Shown one piece after another: positions 9,278 through 61,342 of a DNA stretch of 64,000 nucleotides. The first letter of the stretch is position 1. Each line of letters starts with the position of its first letter. The position numbers were made by a program, and so were the translations under genes. Origin of the DNA: Pseudomonadota bacterium (GTDB lineage Bacteria; Pseudomonadota; Alphaproteobacteria; Paracaedibacterales; CAITNM01); contig JAGOSL010000001.1 of NCBI GenBank assembly GCA_018062345.1, positions 170,493-234,492 of the forward strand, in the 5' to 3' direction. Below the pieces are notes generated by a model. It did not search any database and had not been told where the DNA came from. It saw only the letters and a program-made list of their open reading frames with translations.

Positions 9278-9955
9278 TTAATGATTAATTACAAAAATAT
9301 CTAAAAATCCTGAGATGTGGGCGCACTCTTGTAAAAATTTGCTTGGTACAAAACATGGTACATGTTCTGCATTAATATCTTTGGCTATGCATAAGTCTAC
9401 AAAGCCATAAAGTGCCATTTCAGAGTTGATAACGACAGCGTCGATGGCGTTATTGCGCAGCGCTTCTTCAATGTTTTGATGAAATGCAGTGCTGGGTTTG
9501 GTTGTGTATAAAATGACTTTGCTGGTTTGAAAGCCGCAGTTGTGTAGAATTTCAGCTACATCATGCCGCAGATGATTACCGCACCCAAAGATGATTGGCC
9601 CATCTTCTGGATTTAAATTTTCTTTAATCCATTCAATCAGGCTTAAAGCTGAAGGGTAAGCTTTATTGGAGGGTGATATGCTATTTTCAAACCCTATAGC
9701 TTTTGCTTTTAAGGCGGTGGCGTTGCCAACGGCGTACACGGGAAGAGAGCGATCCCAATCAGAGCTTTCAAGTGCCAATGCTGCATTGCTAGAGGTTATA
9801 ACAATTGCTTGTGGGGTAATATTGAGTGGTTCAATGGGTGAAAATTCTACATCTAACAACGACTGATGGAGAATTTTTGTGTATCCACAGTGATTCCAGA
9901 ATTTTGTCTCTTTGTCTGAGGGGGGGCGTGTTTGGGTAAGTAAAATGCTTTTCAT
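9278..9955 (-). CDS. hemD: uroporphyrinogen-III synthase
   Basis: 225 aa. ILLTQTRP start, VITSSNAA and YAVGNATALKAKAIGF are typical of the HemD two-lobe pattern. Confidence 0.55.
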   Translation of the reverse strand: MKSILLTQTRPPSDKETKFWNHCGYTKILHQSLLDVEFSPIEPLNITPQAIVITSSNAALALESSDWDRSLPVYAVGNATALKAKAIGFENSISPSNKAYPSALSLIEWIKENLNPEDGPIIFGCGNHLRHDVAEILHNCGFQTSKVILYTTKPSTAFHQNIEEALRNNAIDAVVINSEMALYGFVDLCIAKDINAEHVPCFVPSKFLQECAHISGFLDIFVINH

Positions 9956-11020: not shown

Positions 11021-11452
11021 TTATGGCAAAGTCCAATTTTCAAGTGGAAGATTTTGGATATAAGAAAAATGCTTTGTATTGTTCGTAACTAAGGTTAAAG
11101 ATTGGCTTAAAGCATGAGCTGCAATTAAGGTATCCATAACCCCTATATCTTTTCCTTGCAGCAAAAGCTCAGTTCTGACTTTTCCATAAAGCCATGCCGC
11201 CTCTTCGTCAAACTCTAGAACGACAAAAGCGGTAAGCATATGTTCAATGGCATTGATGAGTTTTTCTTGTTTTGGTGTGTTTTTGTTTTTAAGGTTTTCC
11301 AAGCCTCTAGAGACTTCTGCTACAGAAATTACTGAGATCGCAATACTTCCTTCGGGTTCTTTTAGCAGACGTTGAAAAATATTTTTATGAAAAGTGTCAG
11401 TCTTTTTTACTAAATAGCTTAGAGTATCAGTATCCAGCAGGTAGCGAATCAA
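11021..11452 (-). CDS. vapC: type II toxin VapC (PIN-domain ribonuclease)
   Basis: MIRYLLDTDTLSY (first acidic residue), EVSRG, MDTLIAAHA and LVTNNTKHF. It has a 4-nt overlap with the upstream antitoxin. Confidence 0.85.
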   Translation of the reverse strand: MIRYLLDTDTLSYLVKKTDTFHKNIFQRLLKEPEGSIAISVISVAEVSRGLENLKNKNTPKQEKLINAIEHMLTAFVVLEFDEEAAWLYGKVRTELLLQGKDIGVMDTLIAAHALSQSLTLVTNNTKHFSYIQNLPLENWTLP

Positions 11453-11691
11453 AATAGGTTTGCCTTATCTGTATAATCTGGTGCATCGCGGAGAATTTCT
11501 AAATCGTCTGGCAATGCTGCTAAACTTTCTAACAAAGGTTTCCATGAAAGATTAACAGGCTCTAAAATGACTTTATTGCCGCATTTATGGATATAAACAC
11601 TTGAAGTATCTTTAAAACTAAACTTCTTTGGTAAGCGCACAGCTTGGCTTCCTCCGGTGATAAATAATTTTGCTGACTCAAAATTAAGCAT
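11449..11691 (-). CDS. vapB: type II antitoxin VapB (AbrB/SpoVT fold)
   Basis: 80 aa. AKLFITGGSQAVRLPKKF is the swapped-hairpin motif, and the gene is coupled to vapC. Confidence 0.8.
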   Translation of the reverse strand: MLNFESAKLFITGGSQAVRLPKKFSFKDTSSVYIHKCGNKVILEPVNLSWKPLLESLAALPDDLEILRDAPDYTDKANLF

Positions 11692-11842: not shown

Positions 11843-11997
11843 GCTGGTTAGATTATCCATAAAATTTCTATAATATTGTCATGGATGCTATTTAAACACA
11901 TTAAATTTGAAATTTAAAAATTGGTTTTGGGGTTTTGTTTGCCATATTGATCGAATTTAGATAAGTTGACCTATCATTTTTGATAGGTAGCTGAATA

Positions 11998-13191
11998 ATG
12001 CGTCATGGCGAGTTAGCTCAGGATTTAATTTCTAATGTTGCACCAGCACGCGCCATTAATAGTTATGATGAGTGGTCTTCTTTAAAAGAGGTTATAGTTG
12101 GTTCACCCTTAAGCTATGAAGCGAATGAGTTGGATTTATCGTTTAAGGTTTTTTATGCAGATACTGCGTATTCATCTTTTGGCTATCCTACCTATAAAAA
12201 AAAGAGCGATAATTCAGCTTGTTTGGAGCAAGCAAAAAAACGAGCAATTAACAAAAGGTATTTAGAAGAACTAAATGAAGATGTTGAAGGCTTTGTTGAT
12301 GCTTTAGAAAAAGAAGGAGTTAAAGTTTTTAGGCCTATTGCCTTGAAAGAAGCGACAGAATTTAAAACACCCTATTGGAATGCGACAGGTATTCCGGCGT
12401 TGAACGTGCGTGATCAGGCAATTATATTCGGTGATGAGCTGGTTGAAACAAGCCCGCAAGTTAGGGCGCGTTATTTTGAAAGTGATCTTTTAAAGCCAAT
12501 TTTCTACCGCTATTTTAACTTAGGTTCTAAATGGACGTGTATGCCAAAACCAGTAATGACAGATCATTCTTTCGATTTATCATATGCTAAAGATATAAAA
12601 AGAGAGATGGTTGCTACAGAAGTTCTTTTTCAGCAATCTCGTTCTGATTTTGATGTGGGGTTTGAGATATTATTTGACGGTGCGCAGTGTATTCGTTTTG
12701 GTAAAGACGTGCTCGTTAATGTGACGACTCAGAATCATGAGTTGGGTTTTGAGTGGTTGCAGCAGCATTTGGGATCAAAATTTAGGCTTCATAAAGTTTT
12801 TAAATTAACTGATAATCATATCGACAGCATGATTTTACCTTTGCGTCCAGGTACGCTTTTGTTACGCAGTGCCAAATATTTAAAATTTTTGCCTGATTTT
12901 TTGAGAAAATGGGATATTATTTACCCACCAGAACCCCAATTAAATATTTTTCCAAATTATGAAAGCGATGATTTGGTGTTAACCAGTAAGTATATTGATT
13001 TAAACGTATTGTCACTTGATGAAAATAAAGTGGTAGTGAATTCTTTATTTCCTGAACTTATTGCCACCTTAGAAAAAAATGGATTTACCGTGATTCCGGT
13101 TCGGCATCGACACCGGCGAATTTTTGGAGGAGGATTTCACTGTTTTACCCTAGATACGGTAAGAGAAAGTTCCTTAGAAGATTATAGATAA
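11998..13191 (+). CDS. amidinotransferase (glycine/inosamine amidinotransferase, GATM/StrB1-like)
   Basis: 397 aa. HIDSMILPLRPGTLLL is present. The C-terminal catalytic-Cys region FGGGFHCFTLDTVRESSLEDYR closely resembles the GGGFHCWTCD end of AGAT-type enzymes as I recall them. Confidence 0.75.
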   Translation: MRHGELAQDLISNVAPARAINSYDEWSSLKEVIVGSPLSYEANELDLSFKVFYADTAYSSFGYPTYKKKSDNSACLEQAKKRAINKRYLEELNEDVEGFVDALEKEGVKVFRPIALKEATEFKTPYWNATGIPALNVRDQAIIFGDELVETSPQVRARYFESDLLKPIFYRYFNLGSKWTCMPKPVMTDHSFDLSYAKDIKREMVATEVLFQQSRSDFDVGFEILFDGAQCIRFGKDVLVNVTTQNHELGFEWLQQHLGSKFRLHKVFKLTDNHIDSMILPLRPGTLLLRSAKYLKFLPDFLRKWDIIYPPEPQLNIFPNYESDDLVLTSKYIDLNVLSLDENKVVVNSLFPELIATLEKNGFTVIPVRHRHRRIFGGGFHCFTLDTVRESSLEDYR

Positions 13192-13394: not shown

Positions 13395-14657
13395 ATGCTT
13401 GAAAAGATTTTATCTTTTTCTGCAAAACGTGTTGAGCTGTTTGGTGCTCAATATAAAGCTTATGGAACCTTGGGTCTTATTAATTTTCCAGTGGCATACT
13501 TTATTTTGCATAACGCTATGCACCAGGATGAGAGTATAGGGCTGCGTTTATGCGCTGCTGTTTTATGTGTGCCTTTGGCTTTTCATACATACCTGCCTGA
13601 AAAATTTAAACCCTACCTTCCTTTGTATTGGCATGGAGTTCTAACGTATAGTTTTCCATTTTTTTGTACTTATATGCTTTTGAAAAATAATGTCTCTTTA
13701 GGATGGCTTACCAATGCGTCGCTAGCACTATTTATTTTTATACTGTTGGTTGATTGGTTAATGTTTGCCATTATTGTTTTTTTTGGAGCAGGGTTAGGGA
13801 TTGCGGCATATGCCATTTTCCATGGCTTTGCGAATTTTTATGTGCAGGCAAGTACAGATGATATTTCGCTAGCATGTAATCAATATTCTTTCATCATTAT
13901 TGTGGGGATTTTTTTCTCACGACATAAAGAGATTGTGAAACTTAAAGAAAGGCTTTGCTCAATGGAAAGTCTTGCGGCAACTATCGCTCATGAGCTGCGC
14001 ACGCCGCTGGCAAGTATTGCCATGGTAGGTGAATTGCTGAAAAAGCAGCTGCCTGTTCTTGAATCAGGGGCAAAGGGGGAAGAGCTGCAAAAGGCGTTAA
14101 AATTAATAGCATCAGTGCCTGAACGAATAAGCACAACAACACGCAACGCGTTTACGGTTATTGATATGGTGCTGATGAACCTGAAGAAAAAGCCCGTGTC
14201 TCATGAGCATAAAAATTGCTTGATGAGCGAGTGTATTGAATCAGCATTGTATGAGTATCCTTTGGAGGAAAAGCAAAAGGAATTAATTCATTGGGACAAA
14301 AGTGTAGATTTTTCCTTCAAGGGGAATGAGCTGTATTTGAAGCATGTGTTGTTTAATTTATTGAAAAATGCCCTGTATTACATGCGTGCGGCGAATAAGG
14401 GGGAATTGTTTATTTGGCTGGAGAAGGGCGATAAATACAATTCGTTGTATTTTAAGGATACCAGCACCGGCATTGCACCAGAGGTTTTACCACATATCTT
14501 TGAAAGCTTTTATTCAAAGACCGCGAGAGGTACAGGTGTGGGGTTGGCATTTTGCAAATCGACGATGCGCGAATTTGGGGGAGATATTGTGTGTGAGTCT
14601 ATGGAGGGTGAGTTCACGACTTTTGTGCTGACGTTTCCGGTGGTGGAAGAGGATTGA
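13395..14657 (+). CDS. membrane sensor histidine kinase with about six closely packed TM helices (CqsS/LqsS-like architecture) and no receiver domain
   Basis: H-box ATIAHELRTPLASI, N-box FNLLKNALYY, G1 FKDTSTGIAPE and G2 GTGVGLAFCKS. The N-terminal 175 aa are almost entirely hydrophobic with minimal loops. Confidence 0.85.
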   Translation: MLEKILSFSAKRVELFGAQYKAYGTLGLINFPVAYFILHNAMHQDESIGLRLCAAVLCVPLAFHTYLPEKFKPYLPLYWHGVLTYSFPFFCTYMLLKNNVSLGWLTNASLALFIFILLVDWLMFAIIVFFGAGLGIAAYAIFHGFANFYVQASTDDISLACNQYSFIIIVGIFFSRHKEIVKLKERLCSMESLAATIAHELRTPLASIAMVGELLKKQLPVLESGAKGEELQKALKLIASVPERISTTTRNAFTVIDMVLMNLKKKPVSHEHKNCLMSECIESALYEYPLEEKQKELIHWDKSVDFSFKGNELYLKHVLFNLLKNALYYMRAANKGELFIWLEKGDKYNSLYFKDTSTGIAPEVLPHIFESFYSKTARGTGVGLAFCKSTMREFGGDIVCESMEGEFTTFVLTFPVVEED

Positions 14658-14669
14658 TGGTATAGGGTT

Positions 14670-14717
14670 GGATCTTCACGCCTTCTTTGAAGGCTCAGGA
14701 TGACGGTGAGAGAGTTG
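14670..14717 (+). repeat. GC-rich hairpin repeat, copy C
   Basis: GGATCTTCACGCCTTCTTTGAAGGCTCAGGATGACGGTGAGAGAGTTG. The hairpin is GCCTTC-TTT-GAAGGC. It starts 13 nt after the HK stop. Confidence 0.5.
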
Positions 14718-14759
14718 TGAGGGGACGCACACTTTACGATACCTTGCGTCAAGGAGTCA

Positions 14760-15737
14760 TCAAGCCGCTCTACTAAAGGCCTCAAATGATAAAATTTGTT
14801 TATTGTCTAGATCAAACCCTCCAGGGCCATACGCATAATAATAAAGCTGATTTCCTTGAAGTTGCTGCGCTGGTCTAACATATTGATACCAATTCGAAGG
14901 GTCAGGAATTTCTATTGTTGCATGATTGTGAAAACATAACATTTTCTTGTGTGCTTGCATCTCATCGAACAGGGGATCAAAGAGTTCATGTGAACTGGTA
15001 ATTGCGTCTAAGTGATCTTGTAAAAAAGTGAAAAGACTACTGGCCTCGCCTTTTTTATTTAAAAGCAAGAACGTTCCTGTGGTTTCATGAAGATAATATT
15101 CGACGATGTTATTTTCTTCAACAAGTTTGAAAAAAAGCTCAATAAATGCTGGGTCTTCTAAAGCGGTGGTTGATTTGTCAAAGGTTGCAGCAGTTGTAAT
15201 AAGGCTTGAGGTTTGTTGAAAGTAGGTGAGTTGAGCTTCGACGATAGCTTTTTTTAATTTCTTAATAGATTCAAATTCATGTTTTTTTATGTATGCTTGG
15301 ATAAGCCCCTGATTAAAAGCATCGATGGCAATGTGTTCATCTTCATCACCTGTCAAAAGAATGCGTTGAATCCATGGATTGTTAATTTTTGAGCAGAGTT
15401 CTATTCCTGTGATGCCAGGCATATGGTAGTCAACAATAATCGTTGAAAGCTGTTTGAAGCGATTGGGGTTATAAACTTCCTTGTACAAATCGTAGATATT
15501 AAAATCAAGGCGCACATGCTGCCATGCATCGGGGTTTGTTTGTTCAACAAGTTGATGAGAGAAAAGTGTGTTTTCTTGATGCGCGTTGATGGTCTCTAGG
15601 GCTTGAAAAGGGTTTTGACAAGGTATGTATGTTGATGTGTCTTCATCAAGGCAGGGGATAAGATTTTCAACTATGCTTTGATCATCGTCGATGATCATTA
15701 CTTGGCTGGGAAGAAAAGTACAAGGGATTTTTTTCAT
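14760..15737 (-). CDS. atypical response regulator: receiver domain with a large insertion plus an uncharacterised C-terminal domain of about 190 aa
   Basis: Acidic pocket MIIDDDQ, phospho-acceptor IIVDYHMPGITG, LLTGDED and YIKKH. About 50 extra residues lie between the acidic pocket and the acceptor Asp. No recognisable DNA-binding output is seen. Start moved to MKKIP. Confidence 0.75.
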   Translation of the reverse strand: MKKIPCTFLPSQVMIIDDDQSIVENLIPCLDEDTSTYIPCQNPFQALETINAHQENTLFSHQLVEQTNPDAWQHVRLDFNIYDLYKEVYNPNRFKQLSTIIVDYHMPGITGIELCSKINNPWIQRILLTGDEDEHIAIDAFNQGLIQAYIKKHEFESIKKLKKAIVEAQLTYFQQTSSLITTAATFDKSTTALEDPAFIELFFKLVEENNIVEYYLHETTGTFLLLNKKGEASSLFTFLQDHLDAITSSHELFDPLFDEMQAHKKMLCFHNHATIEIPDPSNWYQYVRPAQQLQGNQLYYYAYGPGGFDLDNKQILSFEAFSRAA

Positions 15738-16052
15738 AAGATTCAGTCCTTCTTGCAATGAAAGAAGCCAAATTATTCAAGACAGTCTATATAACATAAA
15801 AAAAATAACAACCTATAACTTTTTATAGGTAGCCATACATTTTTAATAAATTTTTCCGGTTCTGCTTTTGTTAGAAAAACTCAGGCAATGTCACGTGTTT
15901 TTCGCGTTAACGATCTAGTAATGCATTTTCACTATCTTTAATTCAATGCGCAGCAACATAGGTTACTGCGGGTAATTAACAAATTCTTTACACGATCTGT
16001 GGATGCAAAAAGGGTTTGTTTTTTGTGTTTAATCATTTTGATGGAGAAATTT

Positions 16053-16358
16053 ATGTATAAGAAATTTTTGTTAAGCTTAGCGTTCGTTGTGTCTTTATCA
16101 GCAAATTTTGATGATAAAAACGGAGAAGAATTTGAAACGAATTTTGGAACAGTGTATCGATCAAGTACAAAATTGTATGTGAACGTAAATGATGCAGGCG
16201 AAATAAAGAAGATGAACGCAAAAAAAGGTGGTCTGCTAGTTTTTAAGGGAGGTCAGAGCCTTGGTGAATTTACTTTTCCTGATAGGTTAGTATTGACACA
16301 TAACATGACAAGAGAGAAATTTGTGCAAGCACTTAGTAATTATTTGATTGATGATTAA
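16053..16358 (+). CDS. small secreted hypothetical protein
   Basis: Signal peptide MYKKFLLSLAFVVSLSA. RBS GGAG at 16043-16046. No family recognised. Confidence 0.5.
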   Translation: MYKKFLLSLAFVVSLSANFDDKNGEEFETNFGTVYRSSTKLYVNVNDAGEIKKMNAKKGGLLVFKGGQSLGEFTFPDRLVLTHNMTREKFVQALSNYLIDD

Positions 16359-20591: not shown

Positions 20592-21845
20592 ATGATAAAA
20601 TTACCCAAGAAAATTCTGGCTTCTTCAATACTTGGTGGCATGGTGGAATTTTATGATTTTACAATTTATGGATTTTTTGCACCGATTATTGGCCCCTTAT
20701 TTTTTCCATCTCATGATGCGCTTGTGTCTACCCTTTTAGGGTATGCTGTCTTTGCTGTGGGTTTTATTTTGCGGCCTTTGGGGGCAATGTTTTTTGGTAA
20801 TTTGGGCGATAAGATTGGTCGAAAAAAAGGGTTATGTTTGTCATTGTTTTTGATGGCTTTTGCAACCGGCATGATGGGAATTCTTCCCACTTATGCTGAG
20901 TGGGGTATATATGCTTCATTTTTAATGATTTTTGCACGCATACTTCAAGGGCTATCAGCAGGTGGGGAGTATTCTGGAGGAATTATTTTTGCCGTAGAGC
21001 ACTCTCCTTCTAACGCAAAAGGTCGCGCTGGAAGCATTGTTGTTGCAGGGTGTATGAGTGGGGTGTTTTTGGGGGCTTTAGCTTCATACCTTTGCAGTTT
21101 GCCTTTTTTGAGTAGTTGTGCTTGGGGGTGGAGAATTCCTTTTCTTTTAGGATTTTTTATCTCGATTATAGGATTATATATTCGCACTAATACGTCAGAA
21201 TCAGTGGAATTTAAAAGAAGCAAAATAATAGAAAATCCGCTTTCATATGGGATTAAAAATTATCCCTATCAATGCATAGCAGCTGTTGGAATTGCAGCGT
21301 TTAGTGGTGTGTTTTATCCTATTCTTTCTATGTTTATGCCAACATACTTAACCAAGGTTTTGGGGATGCCGCTGAGCCAAGCGAAATTGTTTTCTCTTGT
21401 TATGACAGTAACAATGGTAAGCTTAATTCCTGTATTTGGGTCTATTTCTGATAAACTTGGCAGGCTTTTAATGATGAGATTAAGTGCAATTTTGGTAAGC
21501 GTGCTTATATTTCCTTATCTATGGAGTCTTGAGTATTCTTCTTTTATGGGCATTCTTGCATCAGGTATGTGTGTTACTTGTGTTGTGGCTATGTTTATGG
21601 GCTGTATGAATACTTATCTCTTGGAAATTTTTCCTGTTAATGTGCGCTATAGCTGTTTTGGGTTTTTCTACAGCATTGGAATGGGGATTTTTGGAGGTAC
21701 TGCTCCAATGATAGGCACTTATTTTTTAACGTTACCTTCTAGTTTTATTATCCTCGGTATTTATTTGATTTTTGGTTGCATGTTGGGGTTATTGGGTGTT
21801 GCAGCCTCAAGGCGACATGTCGGTGTGAATACTAGTCTCGCTTGA
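20592..21845 (+). CDS. MFS transporter, metabolite:H+ symporter (ProP-like) family
   Basis: 417 aa with 12 TM. GGMVEFYDFTIYGFFAP and GNLGDKIGRKKG motifs. Confidence 0.85.
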   Translation: MIKLPKKILASSILGGMVEFYDFTIYGFFAPIIGPLFFPSHDALVSTLLGYAVFAVGFILRPLGAMFFGNLGDKIGRKKGLCLSLFLMAFATGMMGILPTYAEWGIYASFLMIFARILQGLSAGGEYSGGIIFAVEHSPSNAKGRAGSIVVAGCMSGVFLGALASYLCSLPFLSSCAWGWRIPFLLGFFISIIGLYIRTNTSESVEFKRSKIIENPLSYGIKNYPYQCIAAVGIAAFSGVFYPILSMFMPTYLTKVLGMPLSQAKLFSLVMTVTMVSLIPVFGSISDKLGRLLMMRLSAILVSVLIFPYLWSLEYSSFMGILASGMCVTCVVAMFMGCMNTYLLEIFPVNVRYSCFGFFYSIGMGIFGGTAPMIGTYFLTLPSSFIILGIYLIFGCMLGLLGVAASRRHVGVNTSLA

Positions 21846-22606
21846 GAAGCAGATTTAAGTAAATCTGTTTTTTTATCGACTCCTAATTTGCGCTTAATGT
21901 TTTCGATATACCATTCAATCGTTCGGGGAGAACGATTAATGCATCGTGCTATTTCTTTACTTGTATATCCTGCGCTTATAAAATCTAAACATTCTCGTTC
22001 GCGTGTTGTTAATAAAGTTTCTGGAGTCTTTATTTTTTTTATGGGTTCCTCTGGTTGATTTTTTGCAGAGAAAATGTTTGGATTAACAGTAGATTGAGAA
22101 AATTGAAGGAATTCACTTCTTTTGGCAATGCTTAACAGTTTTTCTTTAAAATCAGTGTAATACTGTTCGAGTAAGTGGGATTGGTTAAGGTAATAATTTA
22201 CCCAATCGGCTCCCCCTTCTGCGTTAGAAAAATAAAATCCTTCAATAAAATCATTACATTTGATGTAGCAACAAATGGTATTCCATATTCCTAATTGATA
22301 TAAATGTCGAGACAATTCATCTTTGACTGCTGGTAAGCCCATGCGAACTATATGGTATTTTCCTGAATGATAAGTATTAGTGACTTCTGTTTCGTAGCGA
22401 CCTAACATTATTTCTGATAAATGATTAATGAAAAAGTGGTTCCATTGCTTATTATCTGACCAACCAAAGCTTTTGCCCGATCGATCAAAGCAGCGATAAC
22501 CAAATACACTGGTTTGTAAAAAGGTTGGTAAAAGAGGTTTTAGATTCGTGGTTAAAGTGTCCGTAAAAGCCAAATGATTTGAAGGTATCATCACTTTATT
22601 GCCCAT
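21761..22606 (-). CDS. LuxR-family transcriptional regulator with an uncharacterised N-terminal domain
   Basis: C-terminal HTH LTTRERECLDFISAGYTSKEIARCINRSPRTIEWYIENIKRKLGV. The roughly 190-aa N-terminal domain was not recognised. Its 3' end overlaps the convergent MFS gene by 85 nt. Confidence 0.8.
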   Translation of the reverse strand: MGNKVMIPSNHLAFTDTLTTNLKPLLPTFLQTSVFGYRCFDRSGKSFGWSDNKQWNHFFINHLSEIMLGRYETEVTNTYHSGKYHIVRMGLPAVKDELSRHLYQLGIWNTICCYIKCNDFIEGFYFSNAEGGADWVNYYLNQSHLLEQYYTDFKEKLLSIAKRSEFLQFSQSTVNPNIFSAKNQPEEPIKKIKTPETLLTTRERECLDFISAGYTSKEIARCINRSPRTIEWYIENIKRKLGVDKKTDLLKSASQARLVFTPTCRLEAATPNNPNMQPKIK

Positions 22607-42395: not shown

Positions 42396-44243
42396 ATGCC
42401 TGGCGAAGTTAGCATGGGTAGAGCCATTGTGGATCCAAAAGGTCAAAAGCCTGTACGTGTTGGTATGAATCACGGTGGTCTTGATATGCAAGCAACCGGT
42501 AAAGAAATAAAAGAAGCTACTCTTGCCTCTACAAAAAAGCAAAGCGATGCTATTGAGAAAAATAAAACAGGGGTTCTTCCAGCTATCAGCGCTTTGCAAG
42601 AAAAAGTTAAATTATTACAAAGTGATGCTATTGCACTTAGTAACTACCTTGGAGATCGGCCTGGAATTGAAAGCAGTTTTAAAAGTCTTGTTCCTACAGT
42701 TTCTAAATCTGGAGAATTCTCAACAACTTCATTTGTGGACGTTACTCTAGATAGTGCCGTTGCTAAACCAACATCTGGATCAGTTTCCATGCGTGTTCTT
42801 CAGCTAGCAGTTGAGGACTCACGTATAACGGTAGATACAATCAAAGATTCAAGTAATAATCCCATTACATCAATTAACCAAGAGTTAGGCATATCAGGTA
42901 GTTTCACAATTAATGGTGGCGCCACAATTAATGTAAGAACAACTGATACATTGTACTCAATTGTTTCAGCAATTAACAATTCAAACTCAGGTGTGCAGGC
43001 AAATTTTTCCCAAAATGGTTTCGAACACTATTTAACATTAACAGGAACAAAACTTGCAAAGTCTCTCTTTTTTTCAGATAACGACGGCCTGCTGCAAACT
43101 CATTTTGGTATCGACACGGGGCCTACAGATATAGGAAACTTACAGGCAAAAATAGAATGTGATGTAACCGATGGCAAAAGAGGTGTCGTCACAAAAACCT
43201 ATGAATTTGACTCTAATATCGTTAAAGACCTAATTCCGGGTGCAACCCTAAAGCTTTTGAATACCACAAAAAATAGTGGTGGTGGTTATGACAACCTCAA
43301 TATTAATATTAGCAATAATAGCAAAGAAGCATGCGACAAAATTCTCGCATTCTACCAACACTATAATGAGATACGAGAAACTCTTAACAGAAATCTAATG
43401 ACAGATGACGATGGAAATCCCTTGGATCCAGAAGCTGTTATGGTAAGGTCGCCCTTGATTAAAAAACTTAATGAAGATTTGAGAGCGATTTCTCATTTTA
43501 CATTAGTAGGCTCGGAAAGAGATGATTTTGTAACAGTTAGAGATATAGGAATCGTGCGCGATGAAACAGCTACAGGGTTTCAAGCGGGTATATTTACAAT
43601 AGCTGATGCACAAAAACTTTTAGCAGCAATCCAAAATAATTTTGAGAAAGTCAAAAAGTTATTTGGAAATTACACTACAGTCTCAAATAGTAACTTTCGC
43701 GTAACGGATCTTGGTCCTTCTCTTGACCCTATGCTTGCGGGACGACCAATAACTGTTACGCTTAGCAATGTTGGCGGTAAATATTATTCCAGATTTTTAT
43801 GCGGCAATAACGATACAGGAAATGTAGAGCAAAAATCCTCATCCCGTCTGGTGGGAAAGGAAAATAGTGTTTTTGATAAAATTACGATCGACTATAAGGG
43901 GGCTCCTGTTCAAGATGGAGATAGTGTTACCTTTACTTTGACAGCAACCCAAGGGCTTGGCGTCTCAGTTAGCAATACACTAGGAAGCCTTTTAACAAAA
44001 GAAACTATTGATAAAAAAACCGGTAGAGTAGTAGAGGCAGATGGCGATTTTTCCATTGAGGTAAAACGCATACAACAAAAAAATGAAAAATTAGAAAAGC
44101 AAGTTAAAAGGATTGAAAAAAATGCTGAACGTGAAGAAAAAAGGTGGATAGCTCAGGCTGCACGCTATGATGCAATGAAAGCCAGCTATTCTAGCCTTTC
44201 AAAGCAACTAGAAAGTATGTCGATGGCTCACAGAAGAGATTAG
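42396..44243 (+). CDS. fliD: flagellar filament cap protein FliD (hook-associated protein 2)
   Basis: 615 aa. It has an N-terminal heptad region (ISALQEKVKLLQSDAIALSNYL) and a C-terminal coiled coil (RWIAQAARYDAMKASYSSLSKQLESM). It is followed by fliS. Confidence 0.7.
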   Translation: MPGEVSMGRAIVDPKGQKPVRVGMNHGGLDMQATGKEIKEATLASTKKQSDAIEKNKTGVLPAISALQEKVKLLQSDAIALSNYLGDRPGIESSFKSLVPTVSKSGEFSTTSFVDVTLDSAVAKPTSGSVSMRVLQLAVEDSRITVDTIKDSSNNPITSINQELGISGSFTINGGATINVRTTDTLYSIVSAINNSNSGVQANFSQNGFEHYLTLTGTKLAKSLFFSDNDGLLQTHFGIDTGPTDIGNLQAKIECDVTDGKRGVVTKTYEFDSNIVKDLIPGATLKLLNTTKNSGGGYDNLNINISNNSKEACDKILAFYQHYNEIRETLNRNLMTDDDGNPLDPEAVMVRSPLIKKLNEDLRAISHFTLVGSERDDFVTVRDIGIVRDETATGFQAGIFTIADAQKLLAAIQNNFEKVKKLFGNYTTVSNSNFRVTDLGPSLDPMLAGRPITVTLSNVGGKYYSRFLCGNNDTGNVEQKSSSRLVGKENSVFDKITIDYKGAPVQDGDSVTFTLTATQGLGVSVSNTLGSLLTKETIDKKTGRVVEADGDFSIEVKRIQQKNEKLEKQVKRIEKNAEREEKRWIAQAARYDAMKASYSSLSKQLESMSMAHRRD

Positions 44244-60433: not shown

Positions 60434-61342
60434 GTGATAACGACTAGTCCCCTTCGTATAGGAACCAGGAAATCTGCGTTAGCAATTGTGCAAGCCAGGC
60501 AAGTGATTGCGGCTATGGATATCGGCACAAATTATGAGCTGCTACCCATTGTCAGTTCTGGTGATAGGATAGAAGGACCTTTACACAGTTGTGGAGGGAA
60601 ATCTTTATTCACAAAAGAGCTAGATGCTGCCTTGTTGCAAGGTGAAGTAGATCTTGTTGTGCATTCTATGAAGGATGTAGAAACTCCACTCCCTGAGGGG
60701 CTTGAGCTTGCTGCAGTGCCCTTTCGCCTTGATCCAAGAGATGTGTTGATTACCAATCCAAGTGTTGAAATTGAAAATAGTGATACACCTATCACTATCG
60801 GAACATCATCTTTACGTCGAGGTCATCAACTAAGGTTTCGTTATCCTCATATCTCTATTTTGCCATGCAGAGGTAATATCCAAAATCGCCTACAAAAATA
60901 TGCTAATGGAGAATTTGGTGGGATTATTCTAGCTGTAGCTGGATTAATGCGCATGGGGCTTTTTAATGAAAATCGTATCGATAGCATTATGGCTGATGTA
61001 CAGATTCTTGATACTCATTCCTACGTGCCAGCGCCAGGGCAAGGCGCGCTAGCCGTAGTGAAGCGAAAAGATGATGTGCGATTTGACACGGTGCTGCAAA
61101 AAGTAAATTGCCCAAGCAGTTTTCTGGCTGTGAAAATCGAGAGAATGATTACAGATGCTCTTAATTTGTCATGTCATGATGCGGTTGGTGTATACGCATT
61201 AATTGAAGGCGCTCTATTCTCGGTGCATATTATTTTGTTCACGCCTCAAGGACAAATTGAAAAAAAAGCCAATGGATTGTTGAAGAATCGTGACAAAATT
61301 ATCCCAGCATTTATTGAGGAAATTCAGCAGCTGAGGGTATAG
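60434..61342 (+). CDS. hemC: hydroxymethylbilane synthase (porphobilinogen deaminase)
   Basis: LRIGTRKSALAIVQA, GGKSLFTKELD, AVHSMKDV-like (VVHSMKDV) and GTSSLRR. GTG start. Confidence 0.9.
   Translation: MITTSPLRIGTRKSALAIVQARQVIAAMDIGTNYELLPIVSSGDRIEGPLHSCGGKSLFTKELDAALLQGEVDLVVHSMKDVETPLPEGLELAAVPFRLDPRDVLITNPSVEIENSDTPITIGTSSLRRGHQLRFRYPHISILPCRGNIQNRLQKYANGEFGGIILAVAGLMRMGLFNENRIDSIMADVQILDTHSYVPAPGQGALAVVKRKDDVRFDTVLQKVNCPSSFLAVKIERMITDALNLSCHDAVGVYALIEGALFSVHIILFTPQGQIEKKANGLLKNRDKIIPAFIEEIQQLRV

Follow-up and report, generated by a model that had tools for sequence, protein, structure and literature searches.

A probable orphan LqsS/LqsR-type receptor pair in an uncultured alphaproteobacterium

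Introduction

In Legionella pneumophila, the sensor kinases LqsS (on His200) and LqsT (on His204) undergo autophosphorylation that is inhibited by LAI-1, and the response regulator LqsR is phosphorylated on Asp108 and then dimerises (PMC5289986). LqsS and CqsS, the phospho-acceptors of which are H200 and H194, respectively, have both been described as six-helix receptors (PMC3376566). The C-terminal domain of LqsR is a five-stranded antiparallel sheet that resembles the GGDEF domain of PleD, carries a degenerate motif and has no detected cyclase activity (PMC10653808). Orthologues of LqsR/PhcX are present in 310 of the 6,937 representative Proteobacteria, including 16 Alphaproteobacteria (Liu et al., 2023; PMC10653808). 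Here we describe two adjacent genes encoding relatives of LqsS and LqsR in a 64-kb stretch of DNA (hereafter the window; G+C content ~38%) from contig JAGOSL010000001.1 (assembly GCA_018062345.1) of an alphaproteobacterium of the order Paracaedibacterales. The two genes quite probably constitute a cognate Lqs-type two-component system, most likely a synthase-less ("orphan") receptor pair.

The phyletic distribution of the Lqs genes is uneven. Among the alphaproteobacteria with a free-living lifestyle, Kordiimonas, Rhodomicrobium and Niveispirillum, for example, have full lqsA-lqsS-lqsR sets; lqsR and lqsS without lqsA are found in Candidatus Odyssella thessalonicensis, Candidatus Paracaedibacter acanthamoebae, Candidatus P. 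symbiosus, the Rickettsiales endosymbiont of Stachyamoeba and many Burkholderia species; and lqsR alone in Candidatus Anadelfobacter (PMC10653808, Table S5). Synthase-less LqsS/LqsR pairs are already known, because this whole-genome table lists no lqsA for Odyssella and Paracaedibacter. A full-text literature search for papers that combine LqsR or LqsS with the names of these symbionts yielded none among the matches listed; the symbiont pairs are on record solely as table entries, to which the window adds a new uncultured member.

Two convergent genes encoding a kinase and a response regulator

The locus consists of two convergent genes, the kinase gene on the plus strand (13395-14657) and the regulator gene on the minus strand (14760-15737), which are 102 bp apart. 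The first-pass annotation, which had considered them a possible Lqs-type small-molecule signalling module, had placed the convergent pair at 13395-15758, and both open reading frames (ORFs) were found there. Both genes are conserved, with homologues in the hundreds and, for LqsS-type kinases, in the thousands, so the ORFs can be regarded as real rather than due to chance. The intergenic gap (14658-14759) contains no recognisable terminator: a pattern scan of the 102 bp detected no terminator-like site, the fold of the gap is not more stable than that of shuffled sequence (z = -0.23), and the idea of a terminator between the convergent genes was accordingly dropped. Rfam and tRNA scans of the window yielded nothing relevant.

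For comparison, genome loci that encode relatives of LqsR were fetched (n = 80); the total number of loci fetched was 174, and individual loci are denoted below by L numbers. A metagenome scan with the kinase alignment relied on generic kinase-core patterns, so that almost all of the 80 loci it gave encoded unrelated kinases, and its results were not used.

The response regulator belongs to the LqsR family

Taken mechanically, the regulator ORF comprises 332 aa from a TTG at 15758. The most likely start, judging from the sequence, is the ATG at 15737, which yields a protein of 325 aa, because AAGGA is located 9 nt 5' of this codon, the homologues begin with M-K-x-I-P, and independent gene callers gave 325 aa on near-identical contigs; the same start (about 325 aa from MKKIP) had been chosen at first pass. 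Residue numbers below refer to the 325-aa form unless the 332-aa numbering is indicated.

A phmmer search of the PDB with the 332-aa form retrieved 6sy9_A with an E-value of 2e-48, the alignment extending from residue 10 to residue 328 of 332 (residues 25-349 of 6sy9_A), and the subsequent PDB matches are isolated receiver domains (E ~1e-4). Foldseek, queried with an AlphaFold2 (AF2) model built from a 9-sequence alignment, likewise gave 6sy9, the L. pneumophila LqsR structure, as the top match (E 1.9e-18), despite the poor quality of the model. The regulator is 29-39% identical to the LqsR homologues encoded in the 80 loci over ~300-340 aa. Pfam recognises only a partial receiver in the 332-aa ORF (residues 98-165) and matches nothing in the C-terminal half. 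On the strength of these alignments, the protein is a member of the LqsR family that is homologous over the full length, including the degenerate GGDEF-like C-terminal domain. The family is not rare: at E <= 1e-30, it comprises 363 clusters at 50% identity among 1.84 billion representatives.

The receiver domain (residues ~10-152; 15282-15710, minus strand) was delineated from the partial Pfam Response_reg match and the AF2 model. Within this domain, IIVDYHMPG aligns with VVVDYAMPG of LqsR, so that Asp103 (codon 15429-15431, minus strand, in the translation TIIVDYHMP) is the predicted phospho-acceptor equivalent to Asp108, the phospho-acceptor of LqsR (PMC5289986). The acidic pocket and the conserved Thr and Lys are likewise present: in the family alignment (332-aa numbering), the acceptor D110 and also K159 do not vary, and near-invariance is seen for D24/D25 and T136. 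The DDD pocket is separated from the acceptor Asp by 85 residues, compared to ~44 in CheY, and an insertion of ~40-45 residues (model residues ~52-96) is located between helix 2 and strand 3. This insertion is shared with LqsR, as the alignment of the regulator with 6sy9 is continuous. The first-pass annotation had the acceptor Asp right at 103-110 (it is residue 103 in the 325-aa form) but overestimated the insertion at about 50 residues and put it directly after the DDD pocket.

The C-terminal domain (residues ~185-325; 14763-15185, minus strand) was defined by alignment with the C-terminal domain of 6sy9, and its family-invariant residues include E220, Y222, G228, F230, W290, P296 and Y306 (332-aa numbering). 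The absence of a recognisable motif in this region, which had been pointed out at first pass, agrees with the blank Pfam result, but the region does have a known relative, namely the C-terminal domain of LqsR, to the solved structure of which it can be aligned; it matches the output domain of LqsR rather than an ordinary one. The accompanying statement that the C-terminal half of LqsR is uncharacterised is outdated, given that its crystal structure is now known and is degenerate GGDEF-like (PMC10653808).

The kinase belongs to the LqsS/CqsS family of six-helix sensors

The kinase (13395-14657, plus strand) consists of 420 aa. Pfam detects HisKA and HATPase_c (residues 311-416; 14325-14642, plus strand; PF02518, E 2.7e-20) and no Response_reg, the protein ending at residue 420 after the HATPase_c domain. 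NCBIfam gives generic matches far below threshold for this protein and for the regulator, the best one for the kinase being the LuxN kinase core. In the AF2 model, which was built from 38 sequences and has a mean pLDDT of 85.7, helices span residues 18-41, 48-62, 72-97, 102-118, 121-143 and 154-225; the six membrane helices are connected by loops of at most 10 residues, and the sixth is continuous with the helix that bears His199. Plain hydropathy analysis reveals only three clear hydrophobic stretches and is weakly indicative of six helices, so the count of six is derived from the model and the alignment. The membrane sensor domain, of the CqsS/LqsS type, occupies residues ~18-176 (13446-13922, plus strand). 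His199 (codon 13989-13991, plus strand, in the translation TIAHELRT) is part of AHELRTPL, in which the AHE-R motif is invariant across the kinase alignment, and is the predicted phospho-acceptor equivalent to LqsS His200. The layout proposed at first pass, that is, 420 aa with six tightly packed helices, essentially no periplasmic loop, a HisKA/HATPase core and no receiver domain, is borne out by the AF2 and Pfam results.

Over ~400-440 residues, that is, the full length, the kinase is 33-47% identical to the lqsR-adjacent kinases of 50 of the 80 loci, among them Legionella LqsS; its full-length homologues beside lqsR also include the LqsS kinases of Nitrococcus and Burkholderiales. When the LqsA-linked kinases are considered, the identity is 26-34% for the membrane domain (residues 15-178; 159 aligned positions without large gaps) and 39-47% for the kinase core. 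The N-terminal region is colinear with that of L. pneumophila LqsS and shares with it the motifs FP..Y, E..LR, WP, YW, PFF.T..LLKN and LLVDW; some of the kinase homologues carry the JGI label CqsS. Judging by the sensor domain, the phospho-acceptor His and the HATPase_c domain, the kinase is a member of the LqsS/CqsS family of six-helix sensors, and it is LqsS-like rather than CqsS-like in that the C-terminal receiver domain is missing. Of the original designation "CqsS/LqsS-like", the LqsS part is the more apt. Altogether, the similarity of the two proteins to the Lqs proteins is strong (6SY9 with E 2e-48 for the regulator; 33-47% identity and a colinear membrane domain for the kinase), and the proposal of an Lqs-type signalling module is supported by the family homology of both proteins, the shared domain layout and the adjacency of the genes.

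The residues that determine ligand specificity can be compared at the published positions (PMC3376566), with the CqsS columns matched to the kinase transitively, through the LqsS alignment. At the head-group positions, W104/S107 of CqsS and S111/S114 of LqsS correspond to W104/N107 in the kinase; at the gatekeeper positions, F160/F162/F166 of CqsS and I166/F168/A172 of LqsS correspond to Y164/F166/V170; and at the positions associated with acyl-tail length, C170 of CqsS and T175/L176 of LqsS correspond to F173/F174. An alpha-hydroxyketone is a plausible class of ligand for the kinase.

By analogy with L. pneumophila, a small lipophilic ligand would be sensed by the six-helix bundle, the last helix of which runs straight into the His199 helix. 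His199 would autophosphorylate and the phosphoryl group would be transferred to Asp103 of the regulator. Binding of the ligand would be expected to lower the kinase activity, and the phosphorylated regulator would be expected to dimerise and to act through its degenerate GGDEF-like C-terminal domain. The signal might come from other bacteria, from the host or from an enzyme other than LqsA.

The signal synthase and the distribution of synthase-less pairs

The search for LqsA/CqsA in the genome under study covers the 64 kb of the window. Within it, LqsA was not detected when all ORFs of 80 aa or more were compared by blastp (cut-off 1e-5), tblastn gave nothing below E = 1, and Pfam found no class I/II aminotransferase among the long ORFs, in agreement with the first-pass remark that no CqsA/LqsA is visible. 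A complete Lqs or Cqs system, with an adjacent pyridoxal phosphate-dependent LqsA/CqsA, is not present in these 64 kb.

The closest genome locus belongs to a metagenome-assembled genome (MAG) labelled "Alphaproteobacteria bacterium" (regulator 67%, kinase 72% identical), followed by loci of Candidatus Odyssella, Paracaedibacter, Holosporaceae and Nucleicultricaceae and then by Legionella at ~33%. In a neighbour-joining tree of the regulators, three groups can be distinguished. Group 1 includes Legionella together with beta- and gammaproteobacteria (for example, Nitrococcus), and lqsA is convergent on lqsR in the majority of its members; group 2 consists of the alphaproteobacterial symbionts (Odyssella, Paracaedibacter, Nucleicultricaceae) and the window, with no lqsA up to 10 kb away in any of the ~14 loci of this clade; and group 3 encompasses further gammaproteobacterial MAGs, likewise without lqsA. 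The kinase and the regulator are the sole genes of the neighbourhood that are consistently conserved across 23 loci of the two LqsA-less clades. An orphan receptor is the most economical interpretation because no LqsA is linked and the related symbiont genomes lack one.

Several of the loci show peculiarities of their own. In L084 (2618-3594) and L085 (2312-3288), where the amidinotransferase discussed below is absent, the LqsR-like gene is called in two pieces of 222 and 113 aa, which suggests a frameshift or a pseudogene. Two LqsR paralogues are encoded in the same locus in Odyssella thessalonicensis (L008, 9932-10999 and 16799-17818), the second one being convergent with the kinase gene as in the window, and in a Legionellales MAG (L082, 8886-9908 and 9986-10990). 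The alphaproteobacterial symbiont clade also takes in the LqsR genes of L005, L006 and L063, contigs with the labels Myxococcales, Myxococcota and Opitutia, a placement that could be due to a binning error or to horizontal transfer.

An enzyme gene upstream of the kinase

Directly upstream of the kinase gene lies a gene for a 397-aa protein (11998-13191, plus strand) that matches the amidinotransferases AGAT, StrB1, SxtG and HsvA with E-values of ~1e-48 (PDB entries including 2jdx, 1bwd and 6u1r). Its motifs FD-G, H-I-D and GGGFHC align with D254, H303/D305 and C407 of AGAT, so the catalytic residues are intact, and the full-length homology together with the catalytic Cys-His-Asp identifies it, at the sequence level, as an amidinotransferase of the AGAT/StrB1/SxtG family. 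It shares 60-69% identity with proteins designated "glycine amidinotransferases" in cyanobacteria, Streptomyces and Legionellaceae, and in view of this identity it probably has a general metabolic role; a functional tie to the kinase is suspected.

The amidinotransferase-kinase gene order is kept in four lineages, with gaps of 10-203 bp: the window with L083 and L173, which are of the same species; L001/L003 (kinase 72% identical, gap ~150 bp); L088 (kinase 71% identical, gap 10 bp); and L174 (amidinotransferase 79% and kinase sensor domain 57% identical, gap 64 bp). A convergent regulator gene follows in the window, L083/L173, L001/L003 and L088, and the L174 contig ends inside the kinase gene. 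The genes further upstream vary: those of the window encode a LysR regulator and a PIN-toxin pair, and in L001/L003 and L088 there is a gene for a small protein of 175/176 aa. In L174 (1222-5864), the amidinotransferase-kinase pair adjoins genes for a resolvase, a ParA-like ATPase and a helicase of the RecD2-like type and may be located on a plasmid or another mobile element. In L084-L087, where the kinase is 61-65% identical, the kinase and the regulator are retained and the amidinotransferase is absent.

In other LqsA-less loci, the gene directly upstream of the kinase is on the same strand and separated by 4-80 bp, or overlaps slightly in L068. This slot is occupied by an EgtD-like methyltransferase (Methyltransf_33) in L004 (11560-13751), Odyssella (L008, 19221-20198), Paracaedibacter symbiosus (L009, 7532-8530) and L172 (3863-5985), sometimes accompanied by a second methyltransferase; by a cyclodipeptide synthase on a Nucleicultricaceae contig (L015, 2-322; E 3e-15) and, as weak matches, in L012 (7565-8305) and L068 (7575-8363); and by a common family of unknown function in L014 (1335-2675) and L076 (7516-8799). 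A 398-aa protein encoded upstream of the kinase in L169 was considered as a relative of the amidinotransferase and turned out to be unrelated.

A palindromic candidate operator

The palindrome ACCTATAACTTTTTATAGGT (15811-15830) is located 74-93 nt upstream of the regulator start codon and is a candidate operator; a second copy, ACCTATCATTTTTGATAGGT (11969-11988), ends 9 nt before the start codon of the amidinotransferase gene. Both are perfect 8-4-8 palindromes, though they differ at one mirrored position pair, and these are the only two matches to ACCTAT-N8-ATAGGT in the window even when one mismatch is allowed, compared to an expectation of 0.09. The lqsR-side copy is found at the same distance in L001/L003, L084/85 and L086/87 and in a degenerate form in L088, and among the 174 loci fetched it is present in none outside the clade of the window. 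The amidinotransferase-side copy also occurs in L083 and L173, contigs of the same species, and its homologous site lacks palindromic symmetry in L003 and L088. In relatives, the neighbour of lqsR is a gene for an XRE-type regulator, which might bind the palindrome. Interpretation of the two copies, as a 23-nt direct repeat flanking the three genes, as the ends of a mobile cassette was rejected, since the lqsR-side copy is kept in relatives that lack the other one; for the same reason the palindrome is more likely to be an operator-like element.

Alternative interpretations

The observations that weigh against an orphan alpha-hydroxyketone receptor pair are of several kinds. The sensor domain of the kinase is only 26-34% identical to the LqsA-linked receptors and the published specificity positions differ (N107; F173/F174 where small residues are expected), for which reasons the ligand may not be an alpha-hydroxyketone. 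The AF2 model of the regulator is of low confidence (pLDDT 61.5) and hence gives no independent structural evidence on the output domain; only its top Foldseek match is cited here. An unlinked lqsA may be encoded elsewhere in the genome, given that the window is 64 kb long. The enzyme gene that is conserved immediately 5' of the kinase gene is a hint that the cell makes its own signal, of a different type, in which case the pair would not be an "orphan". An ordinary two-component system that resembles Lqs/Cqs in the generic cores only would agree with the generic domains reported by Pfam and NCBIfam and with the LuxN kinase core being far below the cut-off. The probability of this explanation is nevertheless negligible, considering that the C-terminal half of the regulator aligns with LqsR, the membrane domain of the kinase aligns with LqsS-type sensors and the two genes adjoin each other as in Lqs loci. 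That the pair belongs to a complete Lqs system, with lqsA or cqsA elsewhere in the genome, and senses its own alpha-hydroxyketone, appears improbable. Unlinked lqsA genes are known, as in Cupriavidus and Caballeronia, where lqsR and lqsA-lqsS reside on different replicons or contigs (PMC10653808, Table S5), and only 64 kb of the genome has been seen. Against this, none of the ~14 loci of the alphaproteobacterial clade has lqsA within 10 kb, and no lqsA is listed genome-wide for Odyssella, P. acanthamoebae, P. symbiosus, Anadelfobacter or the Stachyamoeba endosymbiont (PMC10653808). The sole aminotransferase encoded by a neighbour of a related kinase gene (L171, from a Paracaedibacteraceae MAG) was rejected as LqsA (31% identity, compared to 49% among true LqsA proteins) and by our reading of its sequence appears to be an alphaproteobacterial 5-aminolevulinate synthase.

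A different challenge to the orphan status comes from the upstream gene: the amidinotransferase could make, or help to make, a guanidino-type signal for the six-helix kinase, in which case the three genes would form a cassette with a new synthase-receptor pairing. The amidinotransferase-kinase order in four lineages with different upstream flanks speaks for such a cassette, and the linkage is old, because the L174 sensor domain is only 57% identical to that of the window kinase; however, adjacency at ~70% protein identity may be inherited synteny, and L084-L087 retain the kinase and the regulator without the amidinotransferase. Likewise, the catalytic residues are intact, but at 60-69% identity to enzymes of other bacteria the protein looks like a widespread metabolic enzyme with a role of its own, and guanidino compounds, being polar, would by our reasoning be odd ligands for a receptor without a periplasmic domain. 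The rare palindrome has exactly two occurrences in the window, one before the amidinotransferase gene and one before lqsR, yet the amidinotransferase-side copy is palindromic only in the species of the window, and a promoter-like site is located just upstream of the kinase gene. The presence of different small-molecule enzymes in the slot of other LqsA-less loci also favours a cassette; on balance, we deem it unlikely. A generalised version, to which we assign an equally low probability, is that LqsA-less LqsS-type kinases are not orphans but are paired with other synthases from the upstream slot, namely an amidinotransferase, an EgtD-like enzyme or a cyclodipeptide synthase depending on the lineage, with the genes here forming one cassette under a common operator and producing a new class of autoinducer; possibly, this would extend to gammaproteobacterial MAGs with a cyclodipeptide synthase in the slot. 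The conserved enzyme slot is the sole potentially new part of the locus. An orphan Lqs-type receptor pair remains the preferred interpretation.

Other genes of the window

Between the LysR regulator and the amidinotransferase, on the minus strand (11021-11691), are genes for a 143-aa PIN-domain protein and an overlapping 80-aa upstream partner, which look like a VapBC-type toxin-antitoxin pair. The hemD gene (HEM4; 9278-9955, minus strand) is located 3.4 kb upstream of the kinase gene, and hemC (60434-61342, plus strand) is 46 kb away; in L. pneumophila (L047, 5888-7602), two genes just upstream of lqsS look, from our reading of their sequences, like hemC and hemD. The presence of hem genes near lqsS in both loci is probably a coincidence. 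Divergent from the regulator gene is a small ORF (15999-16358, plus strand; 119 aa as listed, 101 aa in L083) with a signal-peptide-like N-terminus, for which there is no Pfam or NCBIfam match and no counterpart beside lqsR among the called genes of L001 and L088. A 281-aa protein (21761-22606, minus strand) combines a C-terminal LuxR/GerE helix-turn-helix with an N-terminal part that has no assignment. With a gene for the FliD flagellar cap (42396-44243, plus strand), the organism encodes at least one flagellar gene.

Implications and comparison with known systems

With this locus, the number of known synthase-less LqsS/LqsR pairs, among them those of the amoeba symbionts Odyssella and Paracaedibacter, grows by one. 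The finding reinforces an ecological point, namely that bacteria which share the protist hosts of Legionella carry Lqs-type receptors without the synthase, a pattern that fits eavesdropping on the signals of others or on host cues and gene exchange inside amoebae. If the upstream enzymes were indeed cognate synthases, the Lqs receptor chassis would have been re-used with several signal chemistries, and these loci would offer testable candidates for new autoinducers; the function of the LqsR output domain would stay unanswered even then.

Among the described systems, that of L. pneumophila is the obvious reference. The window kinase resembles LqsS in having six helices and no receiver domain, with His199 in place of His200, and the regulator resembles LqsR in being of equal length, with Asp103 in place of Asp108, the same receiver insertion and the same C-terminal domain; the identity to the Legionella proteins is ~33% for the regulator and ~35% for the kinase. 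The L. pneumophila cluster is lqsA-lqsR-hdeD-lqsS, whereas the window lacks lqsA and hdeD. The kinase and regulator genes of the window are adjacent and convergent, whereas in L. pneumophila (L047) lqsS and lqsR share a strand and are separated by hdeD, with lqsA convergent on lqsR. The host of the window is alphaproteobacterial, unlike L. pneumophila, and in the sensor domain Trp104 is found in place of Ser111 of LqsS, and the bulky F173/F174 in place of T175/L176. V. cholerae CqsS, the CAI-1 receptor, is of the same six-helix class, and Trp104 corresponds to its head-group residue W104 by the transitive alignment through LqsS. CqsS, however, is of the hybrid type, carrying a receiver at its C-terminus and passing its signal on via LuxU and LuxO, in contrast to the receiverless window kinase with its LqsR-type partner, and this comparison is indirect.

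Comparable to the pair of the window are also those of Odyssella, Paracaedibacter and the Stachyamoeba endosymbiont (Liu et al., 2023, Table S5), with which it shares the regulator clade and the lack of lqsA. The kinases are 44-47% and the regulators ~35% identical, and one of the Odyssella pairs is likewise convergent. The gene upstream of the kinase differs, encoding an EgtD-like methyltransferase in Odyssella, P. symbiosus, L004 and L172 and an amidinotransferase in the window. Finally, PhcX of Ralstonia solanacearum belongs to the LqsR family as well and provides a precedent for an LqsR-type regulator without LqsA, but PhcX has been rewired to the Phc system, has lost its LqsS partner and adjoins phcBSRQ, whereas the window regulator has kept an LqsS-type kinase as its neighbour.

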